The position numbers were made by a program, and so were the translations under genes. The notes under the pieces were generated by a model, which was not told where the DNA came from, did not search any database, and saw nothing but the letters and a program-made list of their open reading frames with translations. Below, one piece after another: positions 40,411 through 64,000 of a stretch of 64,000 nt of DNA; within the stretch, counting starts at the first letter, position 1; every line of letters starts with the position of its first letter. Source of the stretch: Botryllus schlosseri (Eukaryota); the NCBI GenBank assembly GCA_051294905.1, contig CM119373.1:31062001-31126000 (forward strand), written 5' to 3'.

Positions 40411-41382
40411 GATTACCAGTGAACCCGTCCCTCGGTGAACCCGTCCCGTGAACCCGTCCCTCGGTGAACCCGTCCCTCGGTGAACCCGTCCCACGGTGAA
40501 CCCGGCCCTCGATGAACTCGGCCATCGGTGAATTCCGCCCTCGGGAAATTTTGTATTTACCGGCAACCCTAATATCCCACCTCCGGCAACCCTAATATCC
40601 TACCGCAACCCTAATGTCCCCCTACCGGCAACCCTAATATCCCACCTCCGGCAACCCTAATATCCCACCTCCGGCAACCCTAATATCCTAACCCTAATAT
40701 CCCACTTCTGGCAACCCTAATATCCTACCCCAACCCTAATATCCCACCTCCGGCAACCCTAATATCCTAACCCTAACCCTAATATCCCACCTCCACCAAC
40801 CCTAATATCCCCCCTACCCCAACCCTAGTATCCTACCCGAACCAAATGTCCCACTCCCCGAACCCTAATGTCTCCCCACCCCCCACCCTACCCAACCCTA
40901 ACACCCCACCTCAACCTACAGTTGCAATAACGAGCAGACCACGCGTGGTTGATATGTGAGCAATAACAATCGTTGGGATATATTTTTCATCTGAACAAGT
41001 CACACACATTATACAATGCGATAAGACCCAATGCGATGTCATGAAGAGATACGAGGATGTCGAACGTCGCACGACCGCCCCTCGCCAAGTCAATTCAACA
41101 ATGAGCCGACCACGCAATCGTGATCACGTGATCTGATCACTCCGTGACTGCGTGATCTACGCATGCCCTGACCTCCTTACAAGATCGACAAATCAGTTGA
41201 TAATGACATTATTAGTTTAATAATTCATAATAATACTTGTTAATACACTTAATTTCAAAATTTCCCGAGGGCGGAATTCACCGAGGGCCGAGTTCATCGA
41301 GGGACGGGTTCACCGAGGGACGGGTTCACCGAGGGACGGGTTCACGGGACGGGTTCACCGAGGGACGGGTTCACTGGCAACC
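40411..41382. mobile_element. Merlin-like non-autonomous element with 15-bp tandem subterminal repeats and an internal CCCTAA-rich array
   Basis: Termini gattaccagtgaacc / ggttcactggcaacc; TSD ttttcatc (40403-40410, 41383-41390); tandem gtgaacccgtccctcg units inverted at both ends. Merlin assignment inferred from GG-type terminus plus 8-bp TSD. Confidence 0.7.
40561..40910. repeat. Telomere-like C-rich tandem array (ggcaaccctaatatcccacctcc units)
   Basis: Repeated aaccctaa-containing units inside the 40411-41382 element. Confidence 0.9.
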
Positions 41383-43449
41383 TTTTCATCGAGGGAAAGC
41401 AAAGACGCTTATGCAAGTAGTGAACGAATTCCCCGTTTCAGAAGGGATCCATCATCAGTGAATACAAATATAAAGCTTGACCATGACACTATACTTTGTG
41501 TGAGCTTATTGGACTCAAGTTGTAGTATATAGTTGATATTTTGAATGCTCTAGGGATTGACTGAATCAGCCGGTTGTGCTTGGCAGTTATACTTACAGCA
41601 AATTGAATTCACATGTAAGTCTTGTCAAAGTCCTTAATGATGCTGCAGAAAAGAGGTGTAAAGTAAGCACAATGCTGGATATCATGTCCAAACTATGCTG
41701 GATACTATGCAGTATAGTCTGTGATTATCTTTACACCTATTTTCTGCGGGATCAATAGGGACTTTGACATACCACATTGGGCATAGCCTGTGCGAGTGTG
41801 CGTTATCATTAGGGACTTTAGCAACACTTACAAGTGAATTCAATTTACTGTAAGCATCTGATGAGTGCCAAGCATAACCCGCTGATTCAGCCGATTCCAA
41901 TATCATTCAAAACGTCACCTATATATTACAGCTTGAGCCTAATAAGATCACACAAATTACGGTATCGTGTCATTGATAAGCTTTATATTTGTGTTCACTG
42001 ATGATGGATCCTTTCCAAACGGGGAATTCGTTTACCGCGCTTGCAAAAGCGCCTTTGCTTTCCCTCGGTGAAAACACGGCATGTAGGCTACAGCCGTTTC
42101 CTTCCAATAAAGCAGTCATGCTGTAGAAGTGTTTGTGAAGCAGCTGTTGATTGTTCATCATGTTTTCGTACCTTAACATGTCCTAAATTAATCTTAAATC
42201 ATCATCTGCCAACCTACCAACAACGCGATTTCAGAATCCCCACCGGTAGCAGACTCCTTGAGCACATAATCAGCAAGTTGTTGCTGTGGTGATCATTGAA
42301 GCATAGCCAATTAGCCAATCAGGAGCCGTGGTTATTTGATTACTAGTCATCTCGCCGTTCTATGGTCGGTGGCACGCCCATTCTTGGGCAGCTACTTTAA
42401 AACGCTTTGGCCGAAATCTTAACGGCGTTCCCGTGAGCTTCTTTTGGGCTCATTGTTATTTTTTATCAATAATCTATGGAATGAGACACAATCACGGGGT
42501 ATTTTTAAGATTTTCCAAATTTTGGACAACCCTAATATATATATATCACACGCATGAGTTCGTCAACATCAGGAAGTTTATCCGACCCATGTATTAGTCG
42601 GCATTTACGTATGCAAATTGATGCTACCCCGCAACATTTGGAAAATGCATCATTCGCTGATTTCCCACATGTAGTGCGTATTACGTTGTTGGTGTTGTGT
42701 GTTTGCGGGTCAAGCTCACCGCAGAGAGCCACTAAATATTCACTAACGAAAAGCTGAATGTTTCGAGCAACGTTTAGTAACAAAGCAAGTAAGATATTTC
42801 GAGATTAGTAAGATGTGTGATCGCTGATTGTTGATTCTTTTATGCTCCCAGCGCCATGCATAGAGTGGTCCGCAGTTGAAATGCAAATAATTTCAACCAG
42901 AGATCTTATGAGGTAAAATATTGTAATATATGAAACAGGTTCACAGTGCAGAACCTACCAAAGGTTCGTCTGTTAACGTGAACCTCTAAATTTCTGAGGT
43001 TCACACACAGAACGCGAACGTGAACCTCACGTTCACACCATCCTTAGAAAATACGCCCCCTTCCCATTATTCCCCCTAAGCTGCGCACGCGGGCAATTTC
43101 GCAGTGCTGACACTGTCTCTGCGCACAAAATATCTAAGATACGCACAAAAATAAGCCGAAGTGATGACCTTTTTTAGACGTTACGCAGTGTTGTCCAAGG
43201 GACCGCGCAGTGAGTTGGTGTGTGCGCGCAGATTCGTGAAAAATTATAGGGATCATGGATTCTGCCGCAGCCACTATTACTGTCTACCTTTTTATTTGAT
43301 TAGATTGCAATGTTTTATATGCGAAAGTGCAAAATCTACCATTACTTTCAATTATTTATATGAAAAAGATTGATTGTCTCTACTACCCGATACCAAACAA
43401 TTAAAATCTGGTCGATTAGTACCATGACTCACACCGCCCCACTATCCGT

Positions 43450-44031
43450 TCAGTATATTGGCTTTCCAGGGTCCTTTACGAGGTCTTCAATAACCACAGC
43501 ACTGGTTTGGTTTGATCGTGTGGTAGGTACAGCGGCGCCCAAACATTCCTGATTGACACAGCGGATAGTATGGGAAATTGCGATCGGCACAGTTACCACA
43601 CAAAGTCCCACGATCGCAATATGCATAGCAAATACGGTCTGAATACAAATAAAATCTCCTCCATTGGGCATAACAATCGATGTAGCTCCGTGTAGGTTCA
43701 TGACGCCGGCGACAATGCCCGACACGATATTTGCGACCTGCATCTGCTTTCCAACATTCTTTATTAGTGCCAAACCTAGTATTCCAAGAATAAGAGTCGA
43801 GACGCCAGCCAAGATCCCGGTACCATTTCTCGCGACACGTTTCAAATGATCCAAGTAGATATCAGTACATTCCCCGTGACCCCAATTGTGAAAGTTATAC
43901 GGACTGATAGCATATGTGGTCGGAATCAAAACAATTCCCAGCGATATCGCAGCAGATCCAATGATCAATTCTGCAATAGTGTGTGGTATGAGAAATCTTT
44001 TGTTCCTCTGTTTGCCTTCGGTCTGTTGCAT
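43450..44031 (-). CDS. Intronless four-TM CD20/MS4A-like protein (~193 aa), paralogue of the 7332 gene
   Basis: TM segments nearly identical to the 7332 gene; first ATG at 44031 (track start 44058 is GTG). Confidence 0.8.
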   Translation of the reverse strand: MQQTEGKQRNKRFLIPHTIAELIIGSAAISLGIVLIPTTYAISPYNFHNWGHGECTDIYLDHLKRVARNGTGILAGVSTLILGILGLALIKNVGKQMQVANIVSGIVAGVMNLHGATSIVMPNGGDFICIQTVFAMHIAIVGLCVVTVPIAISHTIRCVNQECLGAAVPTTRSNQTSAVVIEDLVKDPGKPIY

Positions 44032-46124
44032 CGTTCCAATATGTTGCTGTATGGTCACTTATGCTTGATTCGTGTCTACAGAAGGGTTGAACTATATCAC
44101 TGGCAGATTTTAGTATCAATTTACATTTATGCAGTAATATGATGCTCTGCAGAGAGATATAGAGGCATACATCTTTATCATATAGGTACACCGTATCCAT
44201 GCGAGTAGTATGGATTTGATGTTGCCGACACACGAGTGTTTTTGCTAACATTACCACACAACGTGGTACCCAAAAAGTGACCTTATCAATTTTGAAAGTC
44301 TATGGAGTACATGGCATGGCCTTCAATAAAGCAATTCAAATGAACGCTTGGGCCTTTAATGACTTTTCCTTTGGTTTCCAGGCTATTTTTGTTGACGACG
44401 CCCTTTGAAGCCCATGCATACACGCCCAGTAAATATAAAATTGGGGATATTTCTAGATTATAGGCCTGTAGTAAAAAGGTCATCAAAACATTTTATTTCA
44501 ATAAAATGCACCTAACGAAGCAAGTTGCTTGTTGATTTCATATTTCAGAAGGACGACGCACATTTTTTGATAGTGTAATACCCATCTCGGTATGTCAATT
44601 TATTGTGGGGGTTCGACTCGATCATTGCTACAACAGAACAACCGCCTTCGCACTAATATAGAGTGTAAAACATGACAAGAACATTAAGAGCTTTACAGCC
44701 AATAAGCGAAACATTCTGGAAGCCGGCCAAAGAGCGTTGGTTGTAAACCAGGTTGTCGCGAAGCTTTTCCGCCACAGGAGCCACATTGGCCCTTTATTTT
44801 CAGTTGTAATTCACAATGAGCCATCTTGCTCGGGTTGGACGATTCTCGTACTGCTGTATTTCAATAAGTAGGCATATTTCGGTTTGTCCCGAATCGATTA
44901 ATATACTTACACAGCGAAGCTCCTTGTATGATTGCGTGACCTTAAGTTTGTGTGCACACCTCTGTGCGATCCTATTGGTCATTTTGCGTACTGTATATAT
45001 AATAATCTGAGCTGAACTCGTTTGCAAAAACTCCAGACTTCATGGTTCGTTCAGATGAATATACTCAAACTCTCGTACATACGTTCCTGATTATATAATG
45101 GAAGAATGTATGATTAACCTCGGAAAACACTGCTTCACTTGTTCCCGGATGAAATTTTACAGTTACACTTCCAATTGATCAAAGCAACTATCAGCGTTGA
45201 AAAATAGTATTGACCGAATGCTGTCGTAGGAACTGTAAATGTATACGAATACCACCGATTATATAATTATGCGTCGCCAGGTGATGAATAAAAACAGTCA
45301 TCGTTTCGCATAACATTTGTAACAGATTCAACCCAAAACACGAGGAGATGTCGCTGATAAACTGTACTTTTTTGATATGTAGAAACTGTCGATGTGTGCG
45401 AATCGAATCAATAACTACCAGTACGTGTCGTCAGGCGATGAATTGAATGAAACCTTTTGGATAACGCTACCTATGCTTTTCTTAAGTGGTTCAACCCAAA
45501 ACACGTCACACTATCGCCCATTAACAGTACTCTTCAAACGTATAGGAAGTGTAAATGTGTACGAATCAAACCAGATCGAATAATAAAAACTATGGGAAAA
45601 AACGATGCGACGTATAAAAACGATTTCAAATAACATTGACACAAACATGACACAAAGGATATCAACATTGTACATTGTACATTCTGCGAGGCAATTTTGT
45701 TGACGACATTTCGTCTATTCATTTCTGAGCTTATTATCGACACTGGTCAGTTGAATAATGGCCGAAGTTTCTCAGCGTTGGTTCGAAAAGTAACCGCAGT
45801 GCTTCGATTGGACCAGATTTTCAGAACTTAAAAAGAGGACATATTTTAGCCAGCAAGTAACACGAAAGTATAACATAGTTACGTTAAAGTTTGATGAAGT
45901 TTTACATTTCTTTGGTATAGTTACAGTCAAAAGTTACAATAACAGACACTTAAATAACAAATCAAATCCAATTTTAAGATTCACCACATGAATACTGCGG
46001 GGCTCCCTTAACTTTTGCAGATGATCGATAGATTTAACGAGATCATGGTATTGTTTACACGAAATATTCATTGGAGTTATATACAAACATCAAGATGCTA
46101 AAAGCTAATGCAACTAATAGTCTG

Positions 46125-48186: not shown

Positions 48187-50295
48187 GTATAGCGGTACTT
48201 CAAATTTCGACAAGAAACTGTTGAAGGCGAGAAAAAGTAGTCTACTATAAATGTGAACCGTTCGAGACCACCAAATACTGCTATAAAAATTGGGTTAAAC
48301 AAGACTGGAAACTGAGCATTCAACGCAATGACTTGGACTCGACCGTCTGCTTGCTGACTTGGACTCGGTAGTGTATTGAAAATGATCGAAATGACTCGAG
48401 GAGAGTCAAAACTATAAAAGTGAGATTGACTTATGACTCGGAACCATTTGTGACTTGATTACAACCCTGGGTTCAATCCAAGACAGGACGTGCTGTCGGC
48501 AATAAACAGTAGTTTTTTAAACGTTGGAATTGTGAATGTGTACGACTAAAATGTGTCGCAGGACGATGAATGAAAATGATTTTGGATAACGACAAGATTA
48601 GCTTTCTTAGCTGGTTCAACGCAAAACACTACACTAGCTGGGTATCCAATAAACATAGAAACTGTGAATGTGTACCAATGAAACGTGTTACATGGTGATG
48701 AATGGAAATTATTTTTAGATAACGCCACGAATGGCGTTGTTAGCTGGTTCAGCGAAAAACACGACGCAATGTAGGCATCCCATAGCAACTGGTAATGTGT
48801 ACTTATCTTACCAATATCGATGTGTTACACTGGGATGACTGCAAACCATTTGAGATAATGATCGCGATGACTGAACACTATTACAAATAACGCTGAATCT
48901 AAACACGACGCATAGGACATCACTTTTGTTAAACAGCTCATTCTGCGTGTATTGGACTATTAAATTCGCGTCTCTTTTGTTGACGACTTTGTCCTCCATT
49001 CATTTCGGAGCTTATCAACACTGACCAGTTGAAACATGACAAAAGTATCTCAACGTTTCTTCGAACTGTAACCGTAGTATTATGATCGCACCGCTCCCCT
49101 ATTAGGAATATATTTCCGCGCACAGCGTGGTGGCAGGTCTTGGGACATATATTCAACAATCGTATAGTTTTTGGAAATCTGAATAATGCCACAACTTCGT
49201 AGGATACAGATTATCGGAATCCAACAGTTTATTTTGCGTATATTGAACTATTAAAAGAGTGCCGTTTTTGTTGAAAACTTTTTCCACCATTCGCAACGTT
49301 GGTTCGAACAGTAACCGTAGCATTTTAGGCTTGACTTGCATGTGCCTCAATTGTGCCTTTCTTCTCCTTTCAGGCTTTATTTTCGAACGATAAAGAAGCA
49401 TAGTGTGTGATTTTGGGAGTAAAAATGTTGAAAAACTAGTCATTCATGAACATCGATAGAAAATGCCATAATCATTGATGGTTTCACATTTTTCATGCAC
49501 TCATCCTGACGATAGGGGAGGCACTGCCTCACTTGCCTCCCCTAATGACCCCTCGTCCCTGACGCATTTACAGTGAGTATGTACTGTTACAGTGACAGAT
49601 GACGATGTTTGACTCCACCTACTCACGTAAGCATGCGTCCGCGCACTTAAAAAGAGCATCAAAGCGAATCTACGATCTTGTATAGCTGACGAAAGTCTCA
49701 AATGTTGTATGAATTTTGTATGTACCAAATTATCAACCAGATTACGAAGCCACCCAACACCAAAAGACGCCTTGACTATAGAAAGTGTGTAAACAGTAGA
49801 TTCACACTTTTACTGTTTTCTACATATGTTGGACATCGAAATGGCACTTGTCTTAAGATTCGAAAAATATCATATGGCTCTTACTGTAATACAATCAGAA
49901 AGATGTAGATGGCAGAACATCCGTGTGGCTAAAGTTTCGCATGACCAAATAAAGCAACCAGCATTATTACTAGTCTTGACAGAGAAACTATGGCGGACAT
50001 GATGTATCCCGTGTAGGGAGTTCGAATTAGTGCCACGATGGCGTCACGAATTTTCAATGTGATGTAACAGTTGATTGACATGTGAGGCTCTTTAGGAGGT
50101 AAAATTGAAAATAGAGGACTAACATGGCTCTTCGGACGAAAAAGGTTCCCGATCTCTGTCATACAGTAGCATACCTAGCAGGATATCAGGTCATTCCGGA
50201 TTCAATCTAGTATACGCAACCTTAACATGCAAGATTTCACAAATCAATATGATCAAGTCGAAATCTGTGATGTAACCATTAGCTATCCCGGCCAG

Positions 50296-51075
50296 TAGGG
50301 ATGGTCTGAACCCCTGAAAGGTTCAGGTTCGCATGAACGCGAACCTTTTTGAAAGGTTCTGTGTGATCGCGAACGTGAACCTATGACGTCATATTGCTAA
50401 TTCCAACCCTACATTTCAGTGAAGTTATATACGAGATACATATAGCGACAAATCAGGCCATATTATGCCACAATGCTTAAGTACATGCTGACAATTTAAA
50501 CGTCACCAAATGTATCATAACTGGAGCAATAAAATGCTATATTAATCACACAAAATCGACATCTTCCGTGGCTTTGCAACATTTTATTCGAGGACTTGCA
50601 AGAGAATATAAGCTTACGCCTTAATGGTCAGATCAAACAATGTATTCGGTGTCTGACTATAGCTACGTTGTTATTGAGCAGAGTGTCAAAGAAGTTTCTG
50701 TATTTACTGCCGATATTACCCCATGACGCAATAAACATATCAAATCAAGTTCGATGCCGTTCACCTGCTATAAATTTTTTTACATTACACAATGATGTAT
50801 TCTTTATATCAATTTCATTGATTGGTTGCATAAGCATCATTCGTTGTGTGAATGTAGTGAATTTCGTTTTTGACGTTGCGTGATTTGGGGTCAAGCTCAC
50901 GGAAGAGAATCACTAAATATTCACAAACGGAAAGCGGATTATTACGAGCAAACTTTCATAACAAAGCAAGTAAAGTTTTTGAGATTGCAATGTGCATGCT
51001 CGTTTAGTGCTGATTTTTTATACTGTCAGCGCCATATATAAAGTGGTCCGAAGTTGAAATGCAAAGACTTTCAAC
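50296..51075. mobile_element. Left part of a second TAGGGATGG-family element, interrupted at 51076
   Basis: tagggatggtctgaacc start; collinear with 39060-39430 and about 42680-42897; similarity stops exactly at the hAT TIR. Confidence 0.85.
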
Positions 51076-54000
51076 CAGTGGCGGCTCGTGACAATATCGG
51101 GTGGTGGGGCAAGGGCCGCAAGCGACTTGTTATCAATATGACGTCACAGTAGCGTTTTTCAACGTTCATGATGGCCACATGAATTTCCCGTAAAACAATG
51201 ATTTTTAACGTAGGTGCCGCGAGAGGTTTGCCGGTGGCGTGACTTGAAGTGCGGTAACAAATATTTTATTCATTGTTTTTTATTCAAATGATTATTTAAA
51301 AAATGTACGCGAACTAAGAATCGTTCCCATGCCACGAATCAATCATCAGGTTATCCTTAGTAGCATGCGTTATGATTTCGTGGTAGAGATTACGCAAGCG
51401 CCGAGTAAGACTATACCAAAAATACACAGACCAACTACCTACAAAGAGCATTCGCATGACACCTTGTGGTGTTTTAATCGTTCCATGCTCAGCAATTCTG
51501 TAAAGTGCTGCAGCGCCTCCGACCCGATTTGTATATGGATTCTCGTCCCGAAAGCGAGTCAAATCGATTTGCCCTCGTCCGAAAGTGTTTGGTACACGAT
51601 CCTGATGCGTTACGACCTGCAGGGGATAGGCAATCAAAGCGTTGGCACCCATAAGCGTAAAACATTATAAAAAGCCAGCTGTTATCCATGGAAGATTAAT
51701 TACGAGTCTGCCTGCCATCATTCAAGCAGGAATCACAGCATTGTGTTAAATTGAAATGCGAGCACATATCGCATTAAACAATTTCATGAATAAATTATTT
51801 CATCTTGATGAATTTTTCACTTTTTTTCCATAGCCATAACAAAATATATCGGTAAATTAACTGTCAGTGTGCCTCGAGTAATAAGGATGAAAACCACTCA
51901 CTTTTCCTTAGCCATAGACATGGTTGAGTTACCTGGGCTCACTTGATTGAAATTATTCGGAAAGAACATGATGTGTACAGTCGTCCGCCCACCAGCATTA
52001 ATTTATGTCTTGTATAAGTATTGTGCGCGACGTGATTTCTTATTAGCAAAATGTTCAATAACGAGTTTATTGAAATCTGGAATTCCCAGAACCACGTCGT
52101 TGTGAATCAAGAGAACAGCCAACGCATTAAGCCCATCTTGGCCCATCATGTTTCTGAGAAAGGTCTTGATACGTTTCAATGTGCTGAAACTGCGCTCGGA
52201 TTACGCGGATGAAATCGGGGTGGTCAAAATGATATTCAGAAAGCTAGTTACTGTAGCAAAGTTGATCGAAAGCGAATTTTCAACTAGGAATTTTGAAAGT
52301 TCACTAGTGGTTTTAATTTCCGAAAAGGATGTGTTAGAATACAAACAAGTCAACTCGCTCTCCAACCGAGCAATGTCGATCATCGGGTAATAACGAGGCA
52401 CGCTGCGCAGTAGTCCAGAAGGAAAATGAATTTTGTAGGCAGGGAAATTTCTCGGATTTAACAGGGCGAAAGTAACCAACTGGTCACTATTCAGACGATG
52501 TTGGATTTGGGACATCAGTATATCGCAACATTCGTAAGCCGCAACAAGCAGGTTTTGCACACTTATCCCACGACGTAAAAGCGCTGTGTCACCAGCGAAG
52601 TGTACATTCGCCCGGATATGCGAAATTGCCTCACAAAAATGTGCAATACACAATTTCGCAGTAGTACCATCGGCCATACGCGACTGAAAAGTGCTGTACA
52701 GTGTATCGACGTGCATGAAGATGTCACAAAAAAGCTTCAAAAAGAACAAAAATTCTTCGTCTTCCAGGAGTCGTTTAAGCCCCGCCGCTTCACGTATGGA
52801 AGTATCATCCGAGACAGGAGAACTCTCAATCACTGAGAAGCATTCCAGAAGCTCCACCCTACTCTCTGACACTCGTTGCACAACTCTGGATTGGAAGTTC
52901 CACCGTGTTGATACGCATCTAGGTAACCGGTGCTTGCATATGTCGCGCAATAGATCAGATCGCTTTGGCGGAACAGAGAAAAAGGAGGAGAACCCTGAAA
53001 GATTTGCAAAGAATATCTTGACAGAAGATATTCCTAAGCACATTTTTTTCACTACAAGATTGAGCTGATGCGCGTAGCAATGCAAAAAATGCGCATGCGG
53101 GTAAACTTCTTTCATTAAAACTTGTACGCTATGTCGCGATCCGCTCATGACTGCTGCGCCGTCGTAGGTTTGCGCAATAAGTTTCGACTCAACTGAATAG
53201 GGCTGTAATGTTTTTTTTAATACGTAAGAAATTCCGACAGCAGTGCGATCGTCAACAGCCACAAAGCTGTGGAATCGTTCGACTGGCATACCAAATTTCG
53301 TGAACCGAAAAATCACGACTAGTTGTGTCAAACACGTAATGTCAGTTGTTTCGTCAGACTGAATAGATAGAAATTCAGCGTCAACAATCTCGGTAAACAA
53401 ATGCTGTAGATAGATGTGATATATCGAATCAAGCACATCATTTTGAATAGTCTTTGAGGTACCCTTAGCTACTGTCGCGGTGTCGAGATGTTCGCGCAAA
53501 ATGCTATCAATGGAAGCCGTGTATTTAATTAGATCCAAAAATACCCCCCTATTGAGAGAGCATTCCTTCTCATCGTGGCCTCGAAGGGGCAATTCATGAA
53601 CTCCAATAAATTTAATGGCATCAATCACCCGAGAGAGAACATGCCTATTCTTATCTACAAGCTCATTGTGCTTGCAGACTGATACGCGATAACTTTCATT
53701 GAGCTGCGACATTACATTTACTCTGCCAAACAATTTATATTTAACTGCACTAGCCATGTGCACTTGGGATTTTTGGTGCGTTTTCAGACGCTCTGACAAA
53801 TGCTTCAGATCGCGATAACCAATTTTGTTCCAACAAGAGCCACTGCTTCCGGTACCGGCACTGTCGAATAAAAGACAGTAAAAGCAAAACAAGGCGTTTT
53901 TATCCTCGCCATAAGTAAGCCATTCATTTTTATCGAAATGCGCTGAAGAAAAGGCACGAGTGCGCTTTCCTCCGGCGTACGATTGGATCAATGGGCAATT

Positions 54001-54121
54001 TCTAGGCTGATACGGACCTAGTCGCTTTACCTCTAATTTTTGCTCTAAAGGCAGCTGGCTAAACGGCGTACGGAGCAAAGATTCAACACGATTCATGTTC
54101 GCACTTGACCTGACTACTTAT
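51076..54121 (-). mobile_element. hAT DNA transposon (ZMYM1/PRKRIR-like clade); only the 3'-side terminus is visible
   Basis: Terminus cagtggcggctcgtg at 51076 interrupts the host MITE (putative TSD ctttcaac, 51068-51075); transposase at 52003-54096. The matching cacgagccgccactg end was not found in the window, so the right coordinate is a lower bound. Confidence 0.8.
52003..54096 (-). pseudogene. hAT transposase with a single premature stop at 52201-52203
   Basis: TTF-type Zn finger (WLTY...LFCFYCLLF), DUF4371-like LRGHDE, SDETTD, TYDGAAVMSG, HCYAHQLNL and STRW motifs. After TAA the same frame continues SERSFSTLKRIKTFLRNMMGQDGLNALAVLLIH to a stop at 52003. Confidence 0.92.
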
Positions 54122-54489
54122 CTGCAGAAATGGAAATGACTATAAATCGAGAGATTGCGTATGCCTAACTGGAAAGGTCAACGAGTTCGGACACATACGC
54201 AATTGTTATCTCATAGATTGGACAAGGAAATGTCGGTACTTGTGAAATAAGTGCCCGGAGGTCTAGGCGGCAATAGTTGTTGCACCATAAAATGGGTGTG
54301 TAGTGGGATAGTAAGTGTTTTGCATGTACATTGAAATGAGGGTGAAAAAATCATTAGGCCTGGTAAGGAACAAGTGAAAAAAATAACCCTGTCATAGGAA
54401 TAACACGGGATTAAAATAGGAGAGAGTCAGTACACATGAAACGCCAAGAAAAAGGGGGGTTTGATCCGCCAAAGACGATGGGGAGTTGA

Positions 54490-55473
54490 TCGACGCCACA
54501 TGTCGTATTATTTACTTGCGCAGATACGCGGAAAAGAACATACAATGTGTTGAGTTTGGTCGAATCGGGTGCATTGCTAAACACACGGGATTGTGTGATA
54601 TTTCTGAGAAATCACGGGTTGTTGGTGCGAAGGATGAAATGCAAGCGATGTAAAAAAATAATGAAAGAGGAAATTACGCCAACAGGCGATGATGGATTTA
54701 GGTGGCGATGCAACCCCTGTGACACTACGGCGACTATACGGAAACACTCGATATTCGCGGGAAGCAAGGTAGAACTTCCCAAATTATTAATATTGTTCTA
54801 CTTTTGGTCCCATGACGCGTTGCAAACCCAAATTTCGCATGAAGCCGAGATTAGCCAACGTTCAACGGTCACCTGGTGTGGCCGATTGCGAAAGCTTTGT
54901 ACGGCCGAATTTCACAGGAATAAGCGACGTTTGGGAAATGAAGGCGGTTGTGTAGTTATTGATGAAACGCATCTGGCTAAGCGTCGGGTTGCCTCAGACA
55001 AAGGACCAGCCGTTAAAGCCATTTGGGCGTTCGGGGGAATAGACAAAGCCACCGGAGAAATGTTCATCGAAATAACTTCTGACAGGACTGCTCAAGTATT
55101 TCGAAAGTTCATAGTAGAAAATGTGGCAGAGGGGTCCACAATTTTAACCGATGCCTACCCTTCCTACAGGGGCATAGAAAGCTGGGGGAAGGGTTATATA
55201 CACGGTGTAGTGGACCACTCCCGGTGGTTTAAGGACCCTCGGACAGCTTTTTGTACTAATGAAATCGAGGGGGCCTGGGGACAGCTTAAATATCATTTAC
55301 ATAGGTCTCGTGGTTTGGCACGTCACCTTTTGGCCGATTACGTAGGGGAGTTTTTGTGGAAACGTCAACATCAAAAGACTGACCGATTCTTGGCACTCCT
55401 GCGCACCATACACAATGATCCACGGTATAATTTTGACAAATTTGATGGGTCTCCTGTATTACCACATTTGTAA
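54490..55473 (+). CDS. Merlin/IS1595 (ISXO2-like) DDE transposase, apparently intact; true start unresolved
   Basis: Zn-ribbon CKRC...WRCNPC; catalytic VVIDET, ILTDAYPSY, HSRWFKDP, TNEIEGAW and YVGEFLWK motifs. Frame open from 54490 without ATG until MKCKRC; acceptor-like ttatttacttgcgcag ends at 54523. Confidence 0.92.
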   Translation, partial: STPHVVLFTCADTRKRTYNVLSLVESGALLNTRDCVIFLRNHGLLVRRMKCKRCKKIMKEEITPTGDDGFRWRCNPCDTTATIRKHSIFAGSKVELPKLLILFYFWSHDALQTQISHEAEISQRSTVTWCGRLRKLCTAEFHRNKRRLGNEGGCVVIDETHLAKRRVASDKGPAVKAIWAFGGIDKATGEMFIEITSDRTAQVFRKFIVENVAEGSTILTDAYPSYRGIESWGKGYIHGVVDHSRWFKDPRTAFCTNEIEGAWGQLKYHLHRSRGLARHLLADYVGEFLWKRQHQKTDRFLALLRTIHNDPRYNFDKFDGSPVLPHL

Positions 55474-55602
55474 ACCCCGTTTTAAGGTTCCAGGACGGAA
55501 ATGACGACATCTGTTGTTTTGTGTTTTTACAGACGGTAGTCTAGGTCTAGTGCGCGATTATATTTAGTTTATGACGTGGCGAGAACCACCACTGTCTGTG
55601 CC

Positions 55603-58119
55603 ATGGACCTCCTTCCTTATTCTCTGTCTATCCTTGTTGGTATCATTTGTACGTCTGATGTGGTGCTGCATACGGCGGCGAAAGGCATGCACGGACTTGC
55701 AGATCCTGTAACAAGTAGGGCACGGTCTTTCACTCAGGGGACGCTAGGGGAACTACGGGGACCCCTGCCTGAAGAATGGATCACTCTAAATGATACACAA
55801 TGGGAGGACTATCACTTGATGAGCATTTTCAACAAAACGGCGGAGCGACATGTATATAGACGGCCTGAACTATTTTACAGCAAGTCATTTGGTTACGTAG
55901 TAGCTGAGCGTGTTTCATTACAACAAATGGCGTTTCCACATGGAAGATATTGGACAAGTGTACAAGATTTTGAACGCACCTGTCTCTGTCAACGGCGCCT
56001 GGGCCAAATCATGCCCAATATTTCCTATGATGTCCTTAAACAAACGAACATGTTCGTGCGTCCAATAGGGTATTATAGGATTCGTTGGTTCTGGAGTGGG
56101 GACCAATACATGTCGTTTCATGACCTTGGCAAGAATTACTCTATGTTTGCTCTGACCAAATTTAAATTAATTATGATGAGGCTATTCGAAAGTTATTCAG
56201 CTATTGAAGCATCATGCCGTCAAGAGCCTATGGGAGACCGGGACAGAGCCGAAATAAATGAATTGAATAAGTATAATGCCAGTAGCAATAGTTTTACACA
56301 ATGCTGGCATCTAATACAAAAAAGAGCCTATCGGGGCGACTATTGGCAACAGTTGTACTCCTATAGGGAGAAAGGGGTCATATTGGGAATCTGTACAAGG
56401 TGTGATTTTAGAGGAGTTATCTCTGCCCTGGAACCAAATAAGGCAGATATAATCATCCAAGAAATAGTAATGACTAAAGTAAGTAACGTGCAGTATGTGC
56501 GCACTCCATTGATACCATGCCGGGCTCAGGGGGGATGGATTAATCAGGACTGGTTTGAGCACTTATGGCCAAGGGGTCGTGTAATAGCCCATTCGTGCAA
56601 CTTCTGGCCAGGAATGAATACCACTCTATGGGGTGATCTACCAACGACAAATTTTCCTCCCAGAGTAAAATGGATACAACCGTCTTTTCCAAATCTGGAT
56701 CACAGTGTGTATGCTAATCGTGGCAATCAGGGCATGAGGTGGAATAACCTTTTTGATGGTGTGCCGACTAGGTTTAAGGCATCTACATCAACATGGGTAC
56801 CTTTTCCCAGGCCTATGTGGAAATTCTTCCCCTCTCTTACTGCATCGGATGAAGCATGTAAAAATAGAATATCACATAACCAGGATTTGTGCCGCGACCC
56901 TGTAGGAGGACCCATTTTGAAGGCAGCCTTTTGGGACCATGTTCATTTTGATCCGGAGCTAAACCGACCACGCTTCCCAGGGGGACCAATAGAAATTAAA
57001 GGTGAATTGGTATCAAGCAATACCGCCCCACGGGGTACGCGTAGAAGGCGTAAAAGGTTCCTGGCAGGACTGGTATGTCTCGTTTTTGCTGCGATATCAG
57101 CGATCGCCGTCGTTGCGACAGTTTCATCCCAGTTACATGAAGAAACATTGGATCTTAGCCGACAAATCAATAATAGAATGATACAGGCCACGCAGAGGTC
57201 CACTGCACTAGGGAGAAAGATTAACGAACTCTCTCTTCTGCAAATAACCCAACAACAGAAACTGGATCAAACGATCGCTACCATGGAAATGAGGACAACG
57301 TTAACAAATAAACGACTTGTACTAATGGAAAAGTACATAGAAAGAAACCGACAAATGATAGTACGACAAGCCACAGCATCCCTGACCTCTTTTCAAAACT
57401 ATAAGGAAATGAGCGAAGCTGAACTGGCCCTTGATCGATTGGTTTTGGACGAGTTGGCTAATTTAACTGGCAAGTTAATATTCGACTCCAGCAAAGTATA
57501 TCTCACAAAAATCCGACAAGGAACGCTACGGATAAAAGAACACGCTCAGCAATTAATAGCCTATAGAGACGCTTACATCAATGAGACGAATGACATTGGG
57601 GAAGAGCTACGTGCTAACCGAATCAGTCTAGATCAAGCCCAACAGGGTGTGGATTTGGGTTTACAAGTTTGGAGAAAAGATCTAAATAAGAGTGTGTACA
57701 TGAATATTTCTGATTGGCGATATGAGAATATTACAATTAAGCCTTTCGAATTTGTTGGAGGAAAAGAATTTATGAATAACTTGGGCCAAACGATAGAAGA
57801 CATGACACATGGTGTAGGAAGCTTGATAAAATCAGTAGGAGATAGCACAGGAGATCTTCTACAAGATGGATTAGGTGCGGTCGGAGGAATATTCAATAAG
57901 GGAGTGAGCGGAATTTTTTCCGGCCTGGGGTCTGTTCTAATTCCAGTAATTTTGATATTGGGGGCCGGGATCATCTTGTTTTGTGGCTGTCGTTATAGCA
58001 GTCTTTGCTGTCCTAAGTTAAAACCTAAGGTACAACGGCGGAACACGAATACTCAGTTGACGATGTACATATCATCGGCATCGAACCCCGTTAAAACGGC
58101 CAAATCGACAAGAATGTAG
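55603..58119 (+). CDS. Viral envelope-like fusion glycoprotein (class-I-like, ~838 aa)
   Basis: gccATGg start; signal peptide; many N-x-S/T sequons; RRRRKR|FLAGLVCLVFAAISAIAVVA (furin site plus fusion peptide at 57040-57120); long heptad-rich region; Gly-rich amphipathic pre-TM segment; TM VLIPVILILGAGIILF; Cys-rich tail. Confidence 0.85.
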   Translation: MDLLPYSLSILVGIICTSDVVLHTAAKGMHGLADPVTSRARSFTQGTLGELRGPLPEEWITLNDTQWEDYHLMSIFNKTAERHVYRRPELFYSKSFGYVVAERVSLQQMAFPHGRYWTSVQDFERTCLCQRRLGQIMPNISYDVLKQTNMFVRPIGYYRIRWFWSGDQYMSFHDLGKNYSMFALTKFKLIMMRLFESYSAIEASCRQEPMGDRDRAEINELNKYNASSNSFTQCWHLIQKRAYRGDYWQQLYSYREKGVILGICTRCDFRGVISALEPNKADIIIQEIVMTKVSNVQYVRTPLIPCRAQGGWINQDWFEHLWPRGRVIAHSCNFWPGMNTTLWGDLPTTNFPPRVKWIQPSFPNLDHSVYANRGNQGMRWNNLFDGVPTRFKASTSTWVPFPRPMWKFFPSLTASDEACKNRISHNQDLCRDPVGGPILKAAFWDHVHFDPELNRPRFPGGPIEIKGELVSSNTAPRGTRRRRKRFLAGLVCLVFAAISAIAVVATVSSQLHEETLDLSRQINNRMIQATQRSTALGRKINELSLLQITQQQKLDQTIATMEMRTTLTNKRLVLMEKYIERNRQMIVRQATASLTSFQNYKEMSEAELALDRLVLDELANLTGKLIFDSSKVYLTKIRQGTLRIKEHAQQLIAYRDAYINETNDIGEELRANRISLDQAQQGVDLGLQVWRKDLNKSVYMNISDWRYENITIKPFEFVGGKEFMNNLGQTIEDMTHGVGSLIKSVGDSTGDLLQDGLGAVGGIFNKGVSGIFSGLGSVLIPVILILGAGIILFCGCRYSSLCCPKLKPKVQRRNTNTQLTMYISSASNPVKTAKSTRM

Positions 58120-58206
58120 TGCACGCATATGTACTCAAAGGATTTTACTTTTATTAATTTAAATTTTTTCAAAAGTCCACAGATATACTAACTAATTTAT
58201 AATAAT

Positions 58207-61200
58207 ATGAATCGTTACCTTAAATTATGGATTGTGCTGGCAGTAGCCTTAACACTACACCGAGGATATCTTCAAACTCATGGCCAATTATTGCCCCTAT
58301 CTGCTATGAGTGTGAGGTTAGCATTTAATCTTACAGGATGGACAACGTTCCGGTATCAAGGTCTCAGATACATCCGCCTTAATCGTCTATTCAAATTAAA
58401 CGAGAGTTGGCCAATAGGTGAAACGGAAAATAATTTTCCAATATACGAAGAGACGCCCAAATTTGGTCCAACACGAGCTAGTCAGGATCAATTGTACAAG
58501 TTATTTGCACCCTCGGGGTCTGACAAGAGGTATTGGAACGATGTTAGACAATACGAAAGAGAATGCGGGTGCAATCGGAAACTATCAAGAATATCTCCCG
58601 ATATTACGTTGGCAGCCTTTACCAGAACCACAACATATCGCCGAAAGAATAACTTTGGCTTAGTACATACATGGAAGTATGTGGTAGGAAGGGAAGAACA
58701 TGGCACTATGGCTGTGCCGGGTCCGATCCTTCGGATGATATCTCCTAATGCTACTCCACAAGTTACTATACATCAACTGTTGACGGTGTACAAGTTATCA
58801 GTGATGAATATCTTGGCACAATATGCAACAGTGACAGCAAGGTGTCAGCAGCGTTTCGAAGAAATCGCGGGATGGAGAGTCAATAAAGGCGAATTTAACG
58901 TATGTGTGCACGGAGAAGACAACCAGATGCAATGCATAGGATGCTCATTTTATACAGAGGATCTGGCAGTAAATATACTTTCCAGAGACTTTGTGGTCAT
59001 GGAAATAGATAATAGCATAAGAGGATTAGGGACGAGAATGCAAGAAACTTATTCCTACAGTCAATGGCCAGCGGGAGTCAAATTACCCAGATTACATCAC
59101 GACATCGTGTGGTTGAAGGCTCGAAATGAGACGGGCCCCAGGGAGAGGCCAGCAAACTTTGATGGTCATACTTGGTTTAGATTGAGGATTTACGCTCTCC
59201 GCGAACATCTGAATAATGATACTCAACGGATAATGGGGAAGAGAAATTTTCCGACTATGTTGCAAGGCAGCATAGAATGTGAACGTAAAAAAAATCAAAA
59301 GGTTTGTCGAAATTCAATAGGAAGTTTAAAGACGGCATTGGCCTTTAAGGAAGTGTTATATGATCCATATACAAATCAACCCGTGTATGCAGATCATAGC
59401 AATGGTCGTTTACGAATTGCATCTCCAAAACCTGCAGGTCAGGAATCTCCCCTCAAAGCATGGCCTAAGAGTCTACCCAAGTGTAAACAACCCGGTAGAT
59501 TAGGCGACTTTATCCTGACTGCATCATTTAAAAGCAATGGGCAAAATACAAGGAATATGGACTATTATCTAGCTCGCCTAGGAATGTATTACGTAGAAGC
59601 AACAAAACGGCGGTTACGCCAGTTATCTTTGCCCATATATAAAATGCGGAGAAAACTGGGGAGATTGGACAGGTCCATAACTGGTGAAGAGATGGAGTCT
59701 CTAAGTCAGGCGCTACGGTCAGCCTTGACACCTCAGAAACTGAGTAGGATAAATGAAGAATTACTGAGCTATATGTCAACACGCAAGCTCATAGAGGTGC
59801 AGTTTCATGATATCCGGATATTCCGACCAAGTGTGGCCTACACAGCCACAATATGTGCTGGAATATTGGTGTATACGCCTTATGCCTATAAGGACAATAA
59901 CAAAATCAGAACTAACTCTGAAATGCCATTGAGTACCGCGGAATCAATAACGACAAAGGCTGTAAATTTTGAAGGAACCACTCGAAAAGTACCTTCTAGC
60001 TCCGTAATGCCACGAAGTAACGCGGAAGCAATAACGACAAGGACTGTAAGTTACGAAGGAATCACTCGAGAAGTGCCTTCTAGTAGCGAGACTGGTATAT
60101 GGGTTGATATCACTTCTGTTGTAGCGACTCCAGAACCCGCTGTGACACGGGTAAAAACCATAACAATTACTGAGGAAAATGTAAGAATGACGAATCAATA
60201 CGACACTAACCAATATAACTACGATTATATAGAAGGTTACGACGAAGGAATTAGCTATGCCGGTTATGACGATAATACTAGTTTTCAAGACGCTGGAAAT
60301 TACTACTACGATTATTATGACAAAGACGGAGAATATAATGTTTTATTAAAACATAGGCCCATACAGATAGCTTATACTACGGATTCTACAAATATTATTG
60401 AAACTACAATGGCATTACCAATGATTGAAACTCCAACATCAATTAAAAATACTCAATATACGACTGAGTTAACAACAGATACGACAATTTCCACGCCAAA
60501 AACGTCTGCACATACGTCAGATAGTATTACGACCACTTTATCCACTGCTGCAATCACACCACATACTGGAGGGTTGACATCGGCTATTGCTATTTCCGAA
60601 ACGACTTCATCAACATCGCTCCCAGCCATATTGACTACTGTGCATTCCTCACGCGAAGATAACACCGGCCCAAGACCAACTACATCTATTATTACATTCT
60701 TAACTACGGTGAAAACTGTTAGTGAGCAAGAAAGACGCAGGACGAGTCCCACTGATATTTTCACAACTGTGGAACCATCTATGGCTATATCAGCAGAGAT
60801 GGACACTCAGAAAAGCATTGGTATTGCCACGACAGGAGTCACCTTTTCTGAAAGTGGGTTAACAACACGTGTACCAATGGCGAGAAGTGTAAAAGCAAGG
60901 TTACAATGGAATACCATGACCTATCAAATACCCTCAAAAAATGGTGAAATGTTAGGCTCCTTATCCGTGCCAATAAGGAAAACATCCCAAATTACGCAGA
61001 TACCTGAGTCTTACATACAATTAAGTCATCACGCAAATCAAATCAAGGACACGACACCGCCAAGAGCGCATTTCAATATGTTGTTTGATACATCACAAGT
61101 AGCAACGACAGTTGAAACGCACCAATACTTCGTCACCAGCAAGTCCCGCTCTAATACAGAACCAGATAATTTAAACAAAAAGCAAGATCTACAGGTAAGA

Positions 61201-61689
61201 ACTAAATCAACGTCAATGCTTTCATCAGGTGACTATCAGAGCGATCCCACATCAGTAAGTAAAAATGATGTGATCAGAAGTTGGAAGAGTACTTCCAATA
61301 GTGCACTTTCTTCAATTACACCCTCTATCGAAGAAGAAGGAAAAACTACACTCAGTATACCGCATACCTTACCTACGGCCAGATATGACAGATTGGACCG
61401 AATTACATTTGACTTCTATGGACGATTGCACAAACTACACGAAATAGAACAAGGATATGCATCAGGTAACATTATTGTGGATATTAACAATAGAAAGGAT
61501 TTAGAAGAATCACTTAACAATTATGTCTTGATTTTTGCGGTTAGCGTAACAACAATGGTAGGATGTATGTATCTTTGTTATGCGAAATGCGGGAGAGTTG
61601 CAGCAAAACATTATCTTAAAAAGGTTGTTCGGCGGAATAACCAAAAGACGTATATTACAGCAGTAACATTGCATGAAAAACTGAGATAG
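58207..61689 (+). CDS. Type-I membrane glycoprotein with Cys-patterned head and Ser/Thr mucin-like stalk (1160 aa); putative attachment protein
   Basis: Signal peptide MNRYLKLWIVLAVALTL; head shares motifs with the upstream glycoprotein; Thr/Ser-rich ~59900-61380; TM YVLIFAVSVTTMVGCMYLCYA (61522-61584); short basic tail. Confidence 0.8.
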   Translation: MNRYLKLWIVLAVALTLHRGYLQTHGQLLPLSAMSVRLAFNLTGWTTFRYQGLRYIRLNRLFKLNESWPIGETENNFPIYEETPKFGPTRASQDQLYKLFAPSGSDKRYWNDVRQYERECGCNRKLSRISPDITLAAFTRTTTYRRKNNFGLVHTWKYVVGREEHGTMAVPGPILRMISPNATPQVTIHQLLTVYKLSVMNILAQYATVTARCQQRFEEIAGWRVNKGEFNVCVHGEDNQMQCIGCSFYTEDLAVNILSRDFVVMEIDNSIRGLGTRMQETYSYSQWPAGVKLPRLHHDIVWLKARNETGPRERPANFDGHTWFRLRIYALREHLNNDTQRIMGKRNFPTMLQGSIECERKKNQKVCRNSIGSLKTALAFKEVLYDPYTNQPVYADHSNGRLRIASPKPAGQESPLKAWPKSLPKCKQPGRLGDFILTASFKSNGQNTRNMDYYLARLGMYYVEATKRRLRQLSLPIYKMRRKLGRLDRSITGEEMESLSQALRSALTPQKLSRINEELLSYMSTRKLIEVQFHDIRIFRPSVAYTATICAGILVYTPYAYKDNNKIRTNSEMPLSTAESITTKAVNFEGTTRKVPSSSVMPRSNAEAITTRTVSYEGITREVPSSSETGIWVDITSVVATPEPAVTRVKTITITEENVRMTNQYDTNQYNYDYIEGYDEGISYAGYDDNTSFQDAGNYYYDYYDKDGEYNVLLKHRPIQIAYTTDSTNIIETTMALPMIETPTSIKNTQYTTELTTDTTISTPKTSAHTSDSITTTLSTAAITPHTGGLTSAIAISETTSSTSLPAILTTVHSSREDNTGPRPTTSIITFLTTVKTVSEQERRRTSPTDIFTTVEPSMAISAEMDTQKSIGIATTGVTFSESGLTTRVPMARSVKARLQWNTMTYQIPSKNGEMLGSLSVPIRKTSQITQIPESYIQLSHHANQIKDTTPPRAHFNMLFDTSQVATTVETHQYFVTSKSRSNTEPDNLNKKQDLQVRTKSTSMLSSGDYQSDPTSVSKNDVIRSWKSTSNSALSSITPSIEEEGKTTLSIPHTLPTARYDRLDRITFDFYGRLHKLHEIEQGYASGNIIVDINNRKDLEESLNNYVLIFAVSVTTMVGCMYLCYAKCGRVAAKHYLKKVVRRNNQKTYITAVTLHEKLR

Positions 61690-61994
61690 ATATTGTGAAA
61701 ATAATTACTGAATTATTGTAAAGGTAGAAGTTAGGGTTGTTATGTGTTGTGTTGTGTTCGGCCCGTTTTCACGGATTAGAGTCCATGTGAAATTAACTAT
61801 TAACCTAAATTTAATTCCGTTGAAATAACATAGTTTAAAAAAAATCATGCTGTATTTGTTTATGGAAGCCTAAAATTGTACGGAATTTGAGAATGTACGA
61901 GGCAAATTTGCGGTATTAACGGTGATTATACAATGACTATTATTGCGAAATACATAATTGCGAAATTTTCGGATGGTATTGCTAAGCCAAATCG

Positions 61995-62128
61995 GGATTA
62001 AGTAATGCAGTAGTGAGAAAATATGGAAGCAGTAAAAATGGTAGGATTGAGTAATACAGTAGTGAGTAAATATGGAAGCAGTAAAAATGGTAGGATTAAG
62101 TAATGCAGTAGTAAGTAAATATGGAAGC
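61995..62128. repeat. 49-bp tandem repeat, about 2.7 copies
   Basis: Units start at 61995, 62044 and 62093 (ggatt(a/g)agtaat(g/a)cagtagt...atatggaagcagtaaaaatggta). Confidence 0.95.
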
Positions 62129-62719
62129 GGGATGGCGTGATTTTTGTACATGTTGCAATAGCATATTGAAACGGCAAAATACGACCCCAATTGAGGGGTT
62201 GATCACGCCATTGCAAAACTCTTGCACAATAGGCCACAACTAATGGTGGGAAAGGAAGCGCTACAGTGGGTAATTGACGAACAGGAAATATTTAACTGCA
62301 GCAAAAGGGTGAAATTTGTCTGTAATGGGGGGCTTAATTATGCCTGAGTACAAAGGATAGCGACAAAAATTTGCTTGATGAATGTTCGGAAGGACGCCAA
62401 CCCCCTAATTTACGAAAATAGCAAATTGCTCGTGGTGATGGAGGGTGCATGCGCGTTAACGATCTTCCGCTCAAAAATGGATAAAACGCGGAGCGCAGGA
62501 ATGGAAAATCAGTTGACTCCACATCAAACTGTAAGGTGTTAGGGGAGTTGAGGGCTGGTAGCAGTTGGAAAGAAAATTTTTTTTTTTCAAATTAACAGCA
62601 ATAGGACATGCCATAATGATTGAAATATGGGCAAATATAATACGCAATGACAGAGACTTAGACTGTCCAGTTACGGATATCTAATCTCCGTGTGATAGTT
62701 AGCTTATCCATATATAGGT

Positions 62720-62870
62720 TGACACCAGTATTGGGGTGACTCGGGTCAAATGCTTTGAGTGGTTTGACCTGGAGCGGTTCGCTTACAGGGAACGAGTGTC
62801 TTGGCTTGACTCGGGTCGCATTGAGAGTCGATTGACTTGGACTTGACTCGAGTCAGAATGTGCGTTAACT
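62720..62870. repeat. GACTCG/GACTTG subterminal-type repeat of a host MITE family
   Basis: gactcgggtc and gacttgactcgagtc motifs as at 23.6-23.7, 47.4 and 48.3-48.5 kb; suggests a return to host-type repeats. Confidence 0.6.
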
Positions 62871-64000
62871 GGAAGTGACTGGTGTATCGAAGGTCGTGTT
62901 TTTGTCCCAGCACTAGTTGACACTCAACAAGTTTTGGTATGTCAAGAAAATAGACCTGAATATAACTTGGGTCATCATGGTACAGACTGCCAATATAATA
63001 TTATCGCGTGGAAACTGTATCAGTTATACCAAATGTTACTAAAAGTAGAAAAACTAATGCTCACCTTTCCATAAAGGGGAGAGAGAAAATCAACGTGGTA
63101 CTTATAGCTATGATATGAGACTTATATTGTGATCACTCGCTGCACTGATATCCTTATTATACAAAATTAAACACCCGATACTAATTCAATATAAACGCTG
63201 GTGTCTCACGGTTAGGATGATTAGGATTGCATGAGATAGCATGACATACGGATATAAGCGTAAAGTATACTATGAAATAGAATCACGACACGCCAAGCAC
63301 TCGCTCACTCATAATGTGGCCTGTGTCTAAAAAAGGTATGGATAATCCCTGCTAAAGACATTTGAAAATACAATCACTTGAGGCAAATAATGATAGTAGA
63401 TCTGGAATTTTAAGGTTTATAGTATCAGCCTGCTGTCAACGCGCTTTGCTACTGTAGTTGTTCTTTACATAACTTAAATCTAACAATATTGGGTAACATA
63501 GGCGCCAACTTACGGGATTACGAGGTGGTGCAGCCACCTCGTGACCACATTTGCGGGGTGGCGGTCACCTCGTACAAAATGCTCAAACGCTAAAGTGATT
63601 TGAGATTAGTAATCAGTAATCAGGTGAATCGATGCGACCTCGTTAGAGACGTCTTCGATTTCGGTATGCGCGTGTGCCAGGTGCAGCCACGGGGATTTCG
63701 GGGGTCGAACTTGTCTATTTTGAAACGCGAAACTCTGTCATTTTAAAATAATCATTGGAAATCTAATATTCAGCTGCAATTCAATAATTGTGTAATCAGT
63801 GTTCCGCGCGGCGGGTTTGCGAGAAACGTATTGTCAATTAGCGAGAGGTATCTGTGTTTATCTCCCGCTGAGATGGTCGCGAAATTAGATCATTCATTCC
63901 TGTGCGCATGGAAAACTTCGCAAGCCTGATTTATCGCGTCTAGATAAAGCCTGGTTTTGCAGGCCTAACAATCACATCTGCAATAGGCCCAGTTCCCACT

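Follow-up and report, generated by a model that had tools for sequence, protein, structure and literature searches.

We analysed a stretch of 64,000 nucleotides of Botryllus schlosseri (contig CM119373.1, positions 31,062,001 to 31,126,000 of the forward strand), which is called the window below. Near its right end, upstream of a hAT transposase gene and in the opposite orientation, lies a gene for a Merlin/IS1595-type transposase followed by two genes for envelope-like glycoproteins, open reading frames 3 and 4 (ORF3 and ORF4). We read this region as a stack of insertions, in which a unit of about 9 kb consisting of the Merlin gene and the two glycoprotein genes sits inside the 5' region of hAT. 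The probability of this reading is roughly 0.6. A further suggestion is made tentatively, at somewhat less than even odds. The inner unit could be an undescribed mobile element, namely a cut-and-paste transposon of the Merlin/IS1595 type that has its own fusion and attachment glycoproteins, lacks a capsid and a polymerase, is enveloped and is able to move between cells or hosts.

According to the stacked reading, a hAT element would have inserted into a non-autonomous hAT-type element. The inner unit (from about 54.15-54.3 to 62.9-63.25 kb) would then have inserted, in the opposite orientation, into the hAT 5' untranslated region (UTR) just upstream of the start codon, which could have severed the hAT gene from its promoter. 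The true 5' end of hAT would have been displaced beyond the window by the inner unit and by another insertion at 63497, or would have been deleted. The juxtaposition of the hAT and Merlin genes is most likely ordinary nesting. The sequence itself establishes which genes are present, the paralogy of ORF3 and ORF4, the decay of hAT, the borders in composition and a single conserved signal downstream of Merlin, whereas the order of nesting, the ends, the splicing, the fusion activity and the mobility are inferred. The features are listed in Table 1.

Table 1. Features of the probably nested region, with coordinates in the window
Feature	Position	Strand	Basis
Host non-autonomous hAT-type element, left part (TAGGGATG end)	50296..51075	+	comparison with paralogue
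3' terminal repeat of inserted hAT	51076..51090	-	single 15-mer occurrence and paralogue junction
Gene for the hAT transposase (ZMYM1-like/DUF4371 group; 697 codons, of which codon 632 at 52201-52203 is a premature stop)	52003..54096	-	Pfam and relatives
Putative splice acceptor, hAT 5' UTR intron	54122..54145	-	inferred; similar stretch in distant relative P0061
Candidate left end of inner unit, weak	54193..54213	.	7-nt direct repeat 54193-54199, then short imperfect inverted repeat
Putative first Merlin intron	54363..54523	+	donor-like GTAAGG at 54363, acceptor end 54523; 54363-54452 homologous to P0002 upstream read-through
Merlin/IS1595-type transposase, main exon	54524..55473	+	Pfam and relatives
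Splice-acceptor-like signal, Merlin-ORF3 gap	55505..55532	+	kept behind Merlin relative P0002
ORF3, 838 aa, class I fusion-like	55603..58119	+	sequence features and models
ORF4, 1160 aa, ORF3 paralogue	58207..61689	+	profile alignment
G-skewed tail	61690..63243	+	composition; tandem repeat and stop-ridden frame
Candidate right end of inner unit, weak	63229..63250	.	inverted repeat to 63243, direct repeat 63244-63250
Probable left end of further inserted element (CATAGGCG start)	63497..64000	+	terminus occurs 6 times in the window

The outer hAT element and its host

The host element starts with TAGGGATGG at 50296. Its paralogue in the window matches it with 74% identity at 39060-39476 and 78% at 42669-42900. 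The match breaks off at the hAT end; at this point the paralogue goes on with CAGAGATC at 42898. The alignment thus agrees with the preliminary description, which had the hAT end at 51076 splitting its host at a point where the paralogue continues. The same description took the paralogue to be uninterrupted. This is true of the hAT insertion site but not of the rest, where other insertions of about 3 kb lie between 39476 and 42669. Within the paralogue (39060-43046) the nested sequence includes AACCCTAA-rich repeats that are enclosed by the 382-nt arms of a palindrome (39930-42545). The paralogue, with its right terminus CCATCCTTA at 43046, is flanked by an exact 8-bp duplication, GAAAATAC, and for this reason we classify the host as a non-autonomous hAT-type element.

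hAT elements are defined by paired short terminal repeats and an 8-bp target duplication. Within the 64-kb window we found one terminal repeat and one 8-mer. The repeat, the 15-mer CAGTGGCGGCTCGTG, starts with CAG and occurs once, at 51076, while its reverse complement does not occur at all. Since the hAT gene is on the minus strand, this is the 3' end of hAT. The last eight nucleotides of the host, CTTTCAAC at 51068-51075, stand directly before it and fit the target duplication expected for the hAT insertion. Just as had been reported for the sequence up to 64000, and even with generous mismatches, there is no closing hAT end with target duplication in 51091-64000 (allowing 6 mismatches in 23 nt), nor a right end of the host with its duplication (allowing 4 in 17). 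The missing last 149 nt of the host are absent from the window apart from its own internal inverted repeat. The terminus at 63497, CATAGGCG, is presumably also a hAT-type end, and the insertion that it probably marks could displace the closing end of the outer hAT beyond the window.

The hAT transposase matches DUF4371 with 70.6 bits, above the cut-off. The protein search gave 585 matches among the 8000 candidates scored; among the best 120 of the 585 are the intact relative P0008 (697 aa, a cluster of 7 member sequences) with 99% identity and P0009 with 87%. P0008 carries PF14291 and PF05699, that is, a transposase with the C-terminal dimerisation domain of the hAT superfamily. The copy in the window differs from P0008 at 8 of the 697 positions, and P0008 and P0009 are identical at all eight. 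One of the differences is the premature stop, which removes the C-terminal part of the protein. The hAT copy in the window is decaying; the outer hAT is otherwise ordinary and common.

The two transposase genes do diverge, as described before, but the spacer between them is shorter than the reported ~450 bp. The distance from the hAT start codon (54096) is 393 nt to the Merlin stop-to-stop frame (54490) and 427 nt to the Merlin splice acceptor. On the minus strand, 26 nt ahead of the hAT start codon, a pyrimidine tract ends with CAG at 54122, and the distant hAT relative P0061 has a similar acceptor-like stretch ahead of its own start. If this is an acceptor, the first exon and the promoter of hAT would be needed further right. 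Of the 427 spacer bases, about 210 can be accounted for by the hAT splice acceptor and the putative Merlin intron together. The minus strand also has a donor-like GTGAGC at 63308 and TATAAA at 63417-63422, which could be a displaced first exon and promoter of hAT, though such motifs are common.

The Merlin transposase gene

The Merlin gene has both the domain and the acidic triad that are expected of it: the score with DDE_Tnp_IS1595 is 40.8 bits against a curated cut-off of 27, and the triad is D158, D221 and E260 (numbered in the stop-to-stop frame from 54490). Six relatives were matched among 1323 candidates, the best of them 75% identical. A Merlin search of phage records gave no match, and when bacterial and archaeal genomes were scanned with the envelope alignment and the Merlin alignment, none of the 48 and 85 pattern matches was a relative.

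The gene is probably spliced. Its frame has no start codon ahead of the conserved N-terminal part. In all three close relatives that reach that far, conservation begins directly after an acceptor-like F-x-x-A-G/D stretch, which fits the CAG at 54523. The relative P0002 has over-long termini at both sides. The N-terminal one aligns with 54363-54452 of the window, beginning at the donor-like GTAAGG, and the C-terminal one aligns with 55487-55558, including the acceptor-like signal before ORF3; in both cases none of 1000 shuffles was as good. The conserved downstream signal suggests that P0002, too, has a spliced gene behind Merlin.

The glycoprotein genes

The preliminary description spoke of a Merlin-env cassette. 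The envelope-like content is indeed there, in two genes instead of one. Class I fusion proteins are precursors with a basic cleavage site, a hydrophobic fusion peptide after it and a C-terminal membrane anchor. ORF3 has a furin-type site at residues 480-485, a hydrophobic peptide at 486-504 and a single transmembrane helix at 778-796. It also has an N-terminal hydrophobic leader, a Cys-rich head, 11 sequons and a long helical hairpin. The site followed by the peptide was found in 14 of 40 relatives as well, many of the others being fragments that do not span the site.

A direct search with ORF3 gave one match among 4881 candidates (61% identity), and a profile search gave 40 clusters (at 50% identity) among 1.84 billion representatives. 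None of these 40 members reaches any Pfam cut-off, including those of paramyxovirus-F and gB, and the weak hints in Pfam are to the torovirus spike and the foamy virus Env. In the relatives P0132, P0136, P0149, P0158 and P0163 the N-terminus is extended by a long segment, which in some of them includes an EGF-like repeat or several hydrophobic stretches, and the leaders vary in the family.

In the monomer model of ORF3 (mean pLDDT confidence 63) a helix of 94 residues (508-601) is followed by a returning helix (648-694). Three copies of residues 500-712 were modelled as a trimer with a score of 0.75 against 0.00 for the best control, on a scale that was calibrated on two copies, not three, and that long coiled coils may pass by likeness; the contacts agree to at least 86% between runs, with pLDDT of at least 76. 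Of 30 solved pairs 21 scored at or above the mark, and of 23 single chains none did (for eukaryotes, 17 of 29 and 0 of 30). From its sequence features and these models ORF3 looks like a class I fusion-like protein of a family without a Pfam match.

Foldseek gave no match at E≤0.001 to PDB or BFVD for the whole model, and none to BFVD for the model of the head (pLDDT 77, pTM 0.81). With VIA-align the top match was HIV gp41 (Z 9.4, root-mean-square deviation (rmsd) 5.6, 130 residues aligned), tied with unrelated helical hairpins. The best Z of the head (55780-57012) was 3.1, and its weak matches include chains of hemagglutinin-esterase/HEF and SGNH hydrolases (Z 2.1-3.1). The head fold of hemagglutinin-esterase and HEF consists of an SGNH esterase domain into which a lectin domain is inserted. 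For the hemagglutinin-esterase/HEF chains Z is 2.7-2.9 with rmsd 6.8-7.1 over 175-186 aligned residues, and Foldseek E is 0.15-0.22. A very distant origin of the head from hemagglutinin-esterase/SGNH proteins is possible, but these values are within noise. The sequences of solved structures gave only weak heptad matches to HA2 and spike proteins (E≥0.49), and the ESM Atlas placed ORF3 with coronavirus spike clusters at 0.90, with low recognition.

ORF4 is paralogous to ORF3 over about 560 aa. Against the profile of the ORF3 family it was aligned over 456 columns with a probability of 99.8%. It has neither the furin site nor the fusion peptide; instead there is a Ser/Thr-rich stalk, and a transmembrane helix at 1106-1125. 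Its sequence features make ORF4 a predicted fusion-less, mucin-stalked paralogue of ORF3. Its head gave nothing in the ESM Atlas. One family member, P0161, has the same layout. A tree of 18 of the 42 family sequences (the longer ones) joins it with ORF4, and since the support is 55/65 on long branches, a shared origin of the two is neither shown nor rejected.

Composition, tail and ends of the inner unit

The composition of DNA changes at the borders of the inner unit. GC skew is -0.001 at 51076-54096 and +0.31 at 54200-54523, an absolute value reached by 4 of 154 segments of equal length. It is +0.24 at 61690-63243, which none of 32 equal segments in 1-50000 reaches, and +0.01 at 63244-63496. 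Single change points of the skew fall at 53908-54295 and 62127-63029. The skew towards a G-rich strand therefore sets in just upstream of the hAT start codon, spans Merlin and the glycoproteins, and ends at about 62.9 kb. Fitting two change points over 50-64 kb was uninformative: the Ser/Thr-rich stretch of ORF4 dominated the result.

The tail behind ORF4 includes a 49-nt tandem repeat (2.7 copies, 61995-62128) and, at 62132-62542 on the plus strand, a stop-ridden frame of 137 codons with no Pfam match. The inner unit may once have had a small gene here that has since decayed; near 62600 there is also a tract resembling a splice acceptor. No matches to Rfam were found in 50000-64000. No long terminal repeat (LTR) pair or gag/pol remnant, such as an LTR retrotransposon or errantivirus would have, and no long direct repeats or further long frames were recognised in 54-64 kb, and within the skewed unit there are no recognisable genes for a capsid or a DNA polymerase such as define Maverick/Polinton or Teratorn-like elements.

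Merlin elements are described as having terminal inverted repeats of 24-462 bp that start with 5'-GG, and target duplications of 8-9 bp; very imperfect repeats are known (accessible text of PMC8101967). The accessible text of PMC10045372 adds only an 8-bp duplication. We looked for ends by exhaustive scans for repeats with duplications and by local alignments, both compared with shuffles. The candidate pair 54193/63244 was the best of 48 pairs, was equalled by 11 of 300 shuffles and was found after the fact. The duplication at these ends has 7 exact nucleotides, or 8 of 9 with the ends shifted (11 of 300 shuffles as good), and the right end lies about 200 nt past the range of the skew change point. 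There is also a weak inverted similarity of about 110 nt between 54106-54215 and 62626-62739 (8 of 300 shuffles), which may be due to chance or may be what is left of a long terminal repeat. Over 16 nt, 54198-54213 matches 1950-1965; this was taken as chance, since the match lies within another repeat and does not extend.

Weighing the readings

Several results weigh against a single inner unit nested in hAT. There are no Merlin-type ends in the window: the best inverted match among 9856 GG..CC pairs is 14 of 20, and no such pair joins a good repeat with an 8-9 bp duplication. Since the terminal repeats of Merlin are missing within the window, we class the unit as Merlin-transposase-bearing and not as a proven Merlin element. 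The three end candidates that arose in the searches (8 of 300, 11 of 300 and 28 of 500 shuffles) are mutually incompatible, and these frequencies are roughly those of chance for a dozen tests. A resumption of hAT at 63244 was tried and is unsupported: 63244-63500 compares with the hAT 3' subterminal region as well as 190 of 1000 shuffles do, and the two share 11 7-mers against a background of 11.8. No first exon with a start codon was found for Merlin, and a simple acceptor scan gave 8 sites that include 55532 but miss 54523 and the site before ORF4. For the upstream read-throughs of P0003 and P0004 no match to the spacer was obtained (equalled by 813 and 325 of 1000 shuffles), so that the link to a shared architecture comes from one of three relatives, P0002, whose downstream gene itself is not seen. 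Finally, the 2313 stop-free codons of the cassette do not date it later than hAT (1.7 stops expected, P=0.18).

The strongest rival, which is unlikely although it must be taken seriously, is that three unrelated pieces are stacked. Next to hAT there would be a small Merlin element standing on its own and a pair of glycoprotein genes left by an LTR retroelement or an integrated virus fragment, and the envelope genes would not be moved by Merlin. Nested insertions are frequent in the window, we found no ends that surround both Merlin and the glycoproteins, and the 40 relatives of the glycoproteins are known as proteins alone, while env genes are common in Ty3/gypsy elements (accessible text of PMC13524379). 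Moreover, an inverted match of 17 of 19 nt (54100-54118 and 55537-55555) brackets Merlin alone. One copy directly follows the hAT acceptor on the minus strand, the other directly follows the acceptor ahead of ORF3. The bracket was, however, equalled by 28 of 500 shuffles, lacks a target duplication and is not conserved in P0002. The close packing of the genes also speaks against separate pieces: the Merlin stop and the ORF3 start are 129 nt apart on the same strand with all frames open, and the acceptor-like signal in this gap is kept behind the 75%-identical Merlin of P0002. The G skew runs across Merlin and the glycoproteins, and the region holds no recognisable LTR pair or gag/pol remnant from which the pair could have come.

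The preliminary description also offered a composite, in which hAT, Merlin and the glycoproteins are one element of 12.9 kb with a shared bidirectional promoter; the hAT ends would mobilise it. This composite is improbable, and nesting of the cassette in the hAT 5' region, the other option given there, is the better supported branch. The absence of the hAT 5' end and of the host remainder from the window would suit a composite, as would the lack of proven ends of the inner unit, but the new terminus at 63497 would be a simple reason for the missing hAT end. A composite should have equally close relatives for its parts, at least for the short Merlin gene. The hAT protein has a 99% identical relative, against 75% at best for Merlin and 61% for ORF3, in a comparison of proteins only, by searches limited by word and length, with the longest P0008 contig (4823 bp) too short for the whole block. 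Further, the hAT copy is broken, and there are two shifts in composition, one at the junction and a second one short of the window end. The spacer is largely occupied, with at most about 110-160 nt left for two first exons and a promoter. A donor-like GTATGT at 54198 on the minus strand could give a 77-nt hAT intron within the spacer, which would leave space for a compact shared promoter.

A pair of fusion and attachment glycoproteins is a viral trait, and the inner unit could in principle be a piece of a larger integrated DNA virus that has Merlin as its integrase and whose genes for the capsid and for replication lie beyond the window or have been lost. Even with the precedent of Teratorn, where a transposase is fused to a whole virus (accessible text of PMC10175614), this is very improbable, as the skewed unit ends inside the window at about 62.9 kb, its tail has no recognisable gene and no significant structural match to viral proteins was obtained.

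Proposed functioning of the inner unit

If the nested unit is a mobile element, Merlin, ORF3 and ORF4 would form one transcription unit, with a promoter near 54.2-54.3 kb and a short leader spliced to acceptors ahead of each gene. The DDE transposase would excise and integrate the unit. ORF3 would be cleaved by a furin-type protease and would fuse membranes as a trimer, and ORF4 would serve as an attachment or shield protein. The element might then pass between cells in membrane vesicles, by cell-cell fusion or with the capsid of a helper.

How cut-and-paste transposons get from the soma to the germ line and across species is an open question, for which transport by some virus is usually invoked. 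If a small transposon had an envelope pair of its own, this would be a direct and testable route of transfer. The glycoprotein family would be an unplaced lineage of class I-like fusogens, in which an attachment-like protein, ORF4, would derive from a fusion gene by duplication.

Other features of the window

Two inverted arms of 401 nt with 99% identity (17081-18372) surround a fragment, possibly Penelope-like, that matches GIY-YIG weakly at 17239-17979 (E 0.04). Four hydrophobic, single-frame, host-like genes were noted at 7332-7937, 16293-16946 and 43450-44058 on the minus strand and at 36805-37350 on the plus strand; the first three are copies of a repeat. The two of these four genes that were scanned gave weak CD20/MS4A-like matches below the cut-off.

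Comparison with known systems

The outer hAT shares with the ZMYM1-like/DUF4371 group the DUF4371 domain and an end starting with CAG, and intact relatives have PF05699. It differs from them in that the copy is broken and the window lacks its 5' end.

With the Merlin (IS1595/IS1016-related) transposons the inner unit shares DDE_Tnp_IS1595, the acidic triad and a protein of about 320 aa. Unlike them, it has no GG-ended repeats or clean 8-9 bp duplication that we could find, its transposase gene is apparently spliced, and two envelope-like genes follow. Envelope-like cargo of Merlin is not mentioned in the accessible text of PMC8101967, nor is Merlin itself in that of a review of giant transposons (PMC6431247). 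Full-text literature searches, with most subscription papers, Repbase and supplements outside their scope, brought up no description of envelope genes in a Merlin element.

The env-carrying Ty3/gypsy elements, which have env of the F type or the gB type, resemble the inner unit as mobile elements of invertebrates with a furin site and a fusion peptide in their F-type env (accessible text of PMC13524379). The inner unit differs in having no recognised gag, pol or LTR, no Pfam match to paramyxovirus-F or gB in 40 of 40 family members and no significant fold match.

Teratorn, a fusion of piggyBac with an alloherpesvirus, likewise joins a cut-and-paste transposase to viral genes, and is termed the first such fusion of a transposase and a virus. 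However, it has 180 kb with a whole herpesvirus, compared with about 9 kb and glycoproteins only in the inner unit (accessible text of PMC10175614). Nematode Mavericks with MFUS-1 are likewise DNA transposons with an acquired viral-like fusogen that has a signal peptide and one transmembrane helix. Mavericks encode an integrase, PolB, an ATPase and a capsid, and MFUS-1 is of class III (gB-like), whereas the glycoprotein of the inner unit is class I-like and duplicated, with no capsid or polymerase recognised (accessible text of bioRxiv 10.1101/2022.07.12.499685). DNA elements with fusogens are already known. Against this background the Merlin-glycoprotein unit is a real lead, and proof that it moves as one unit would make it categorically new.

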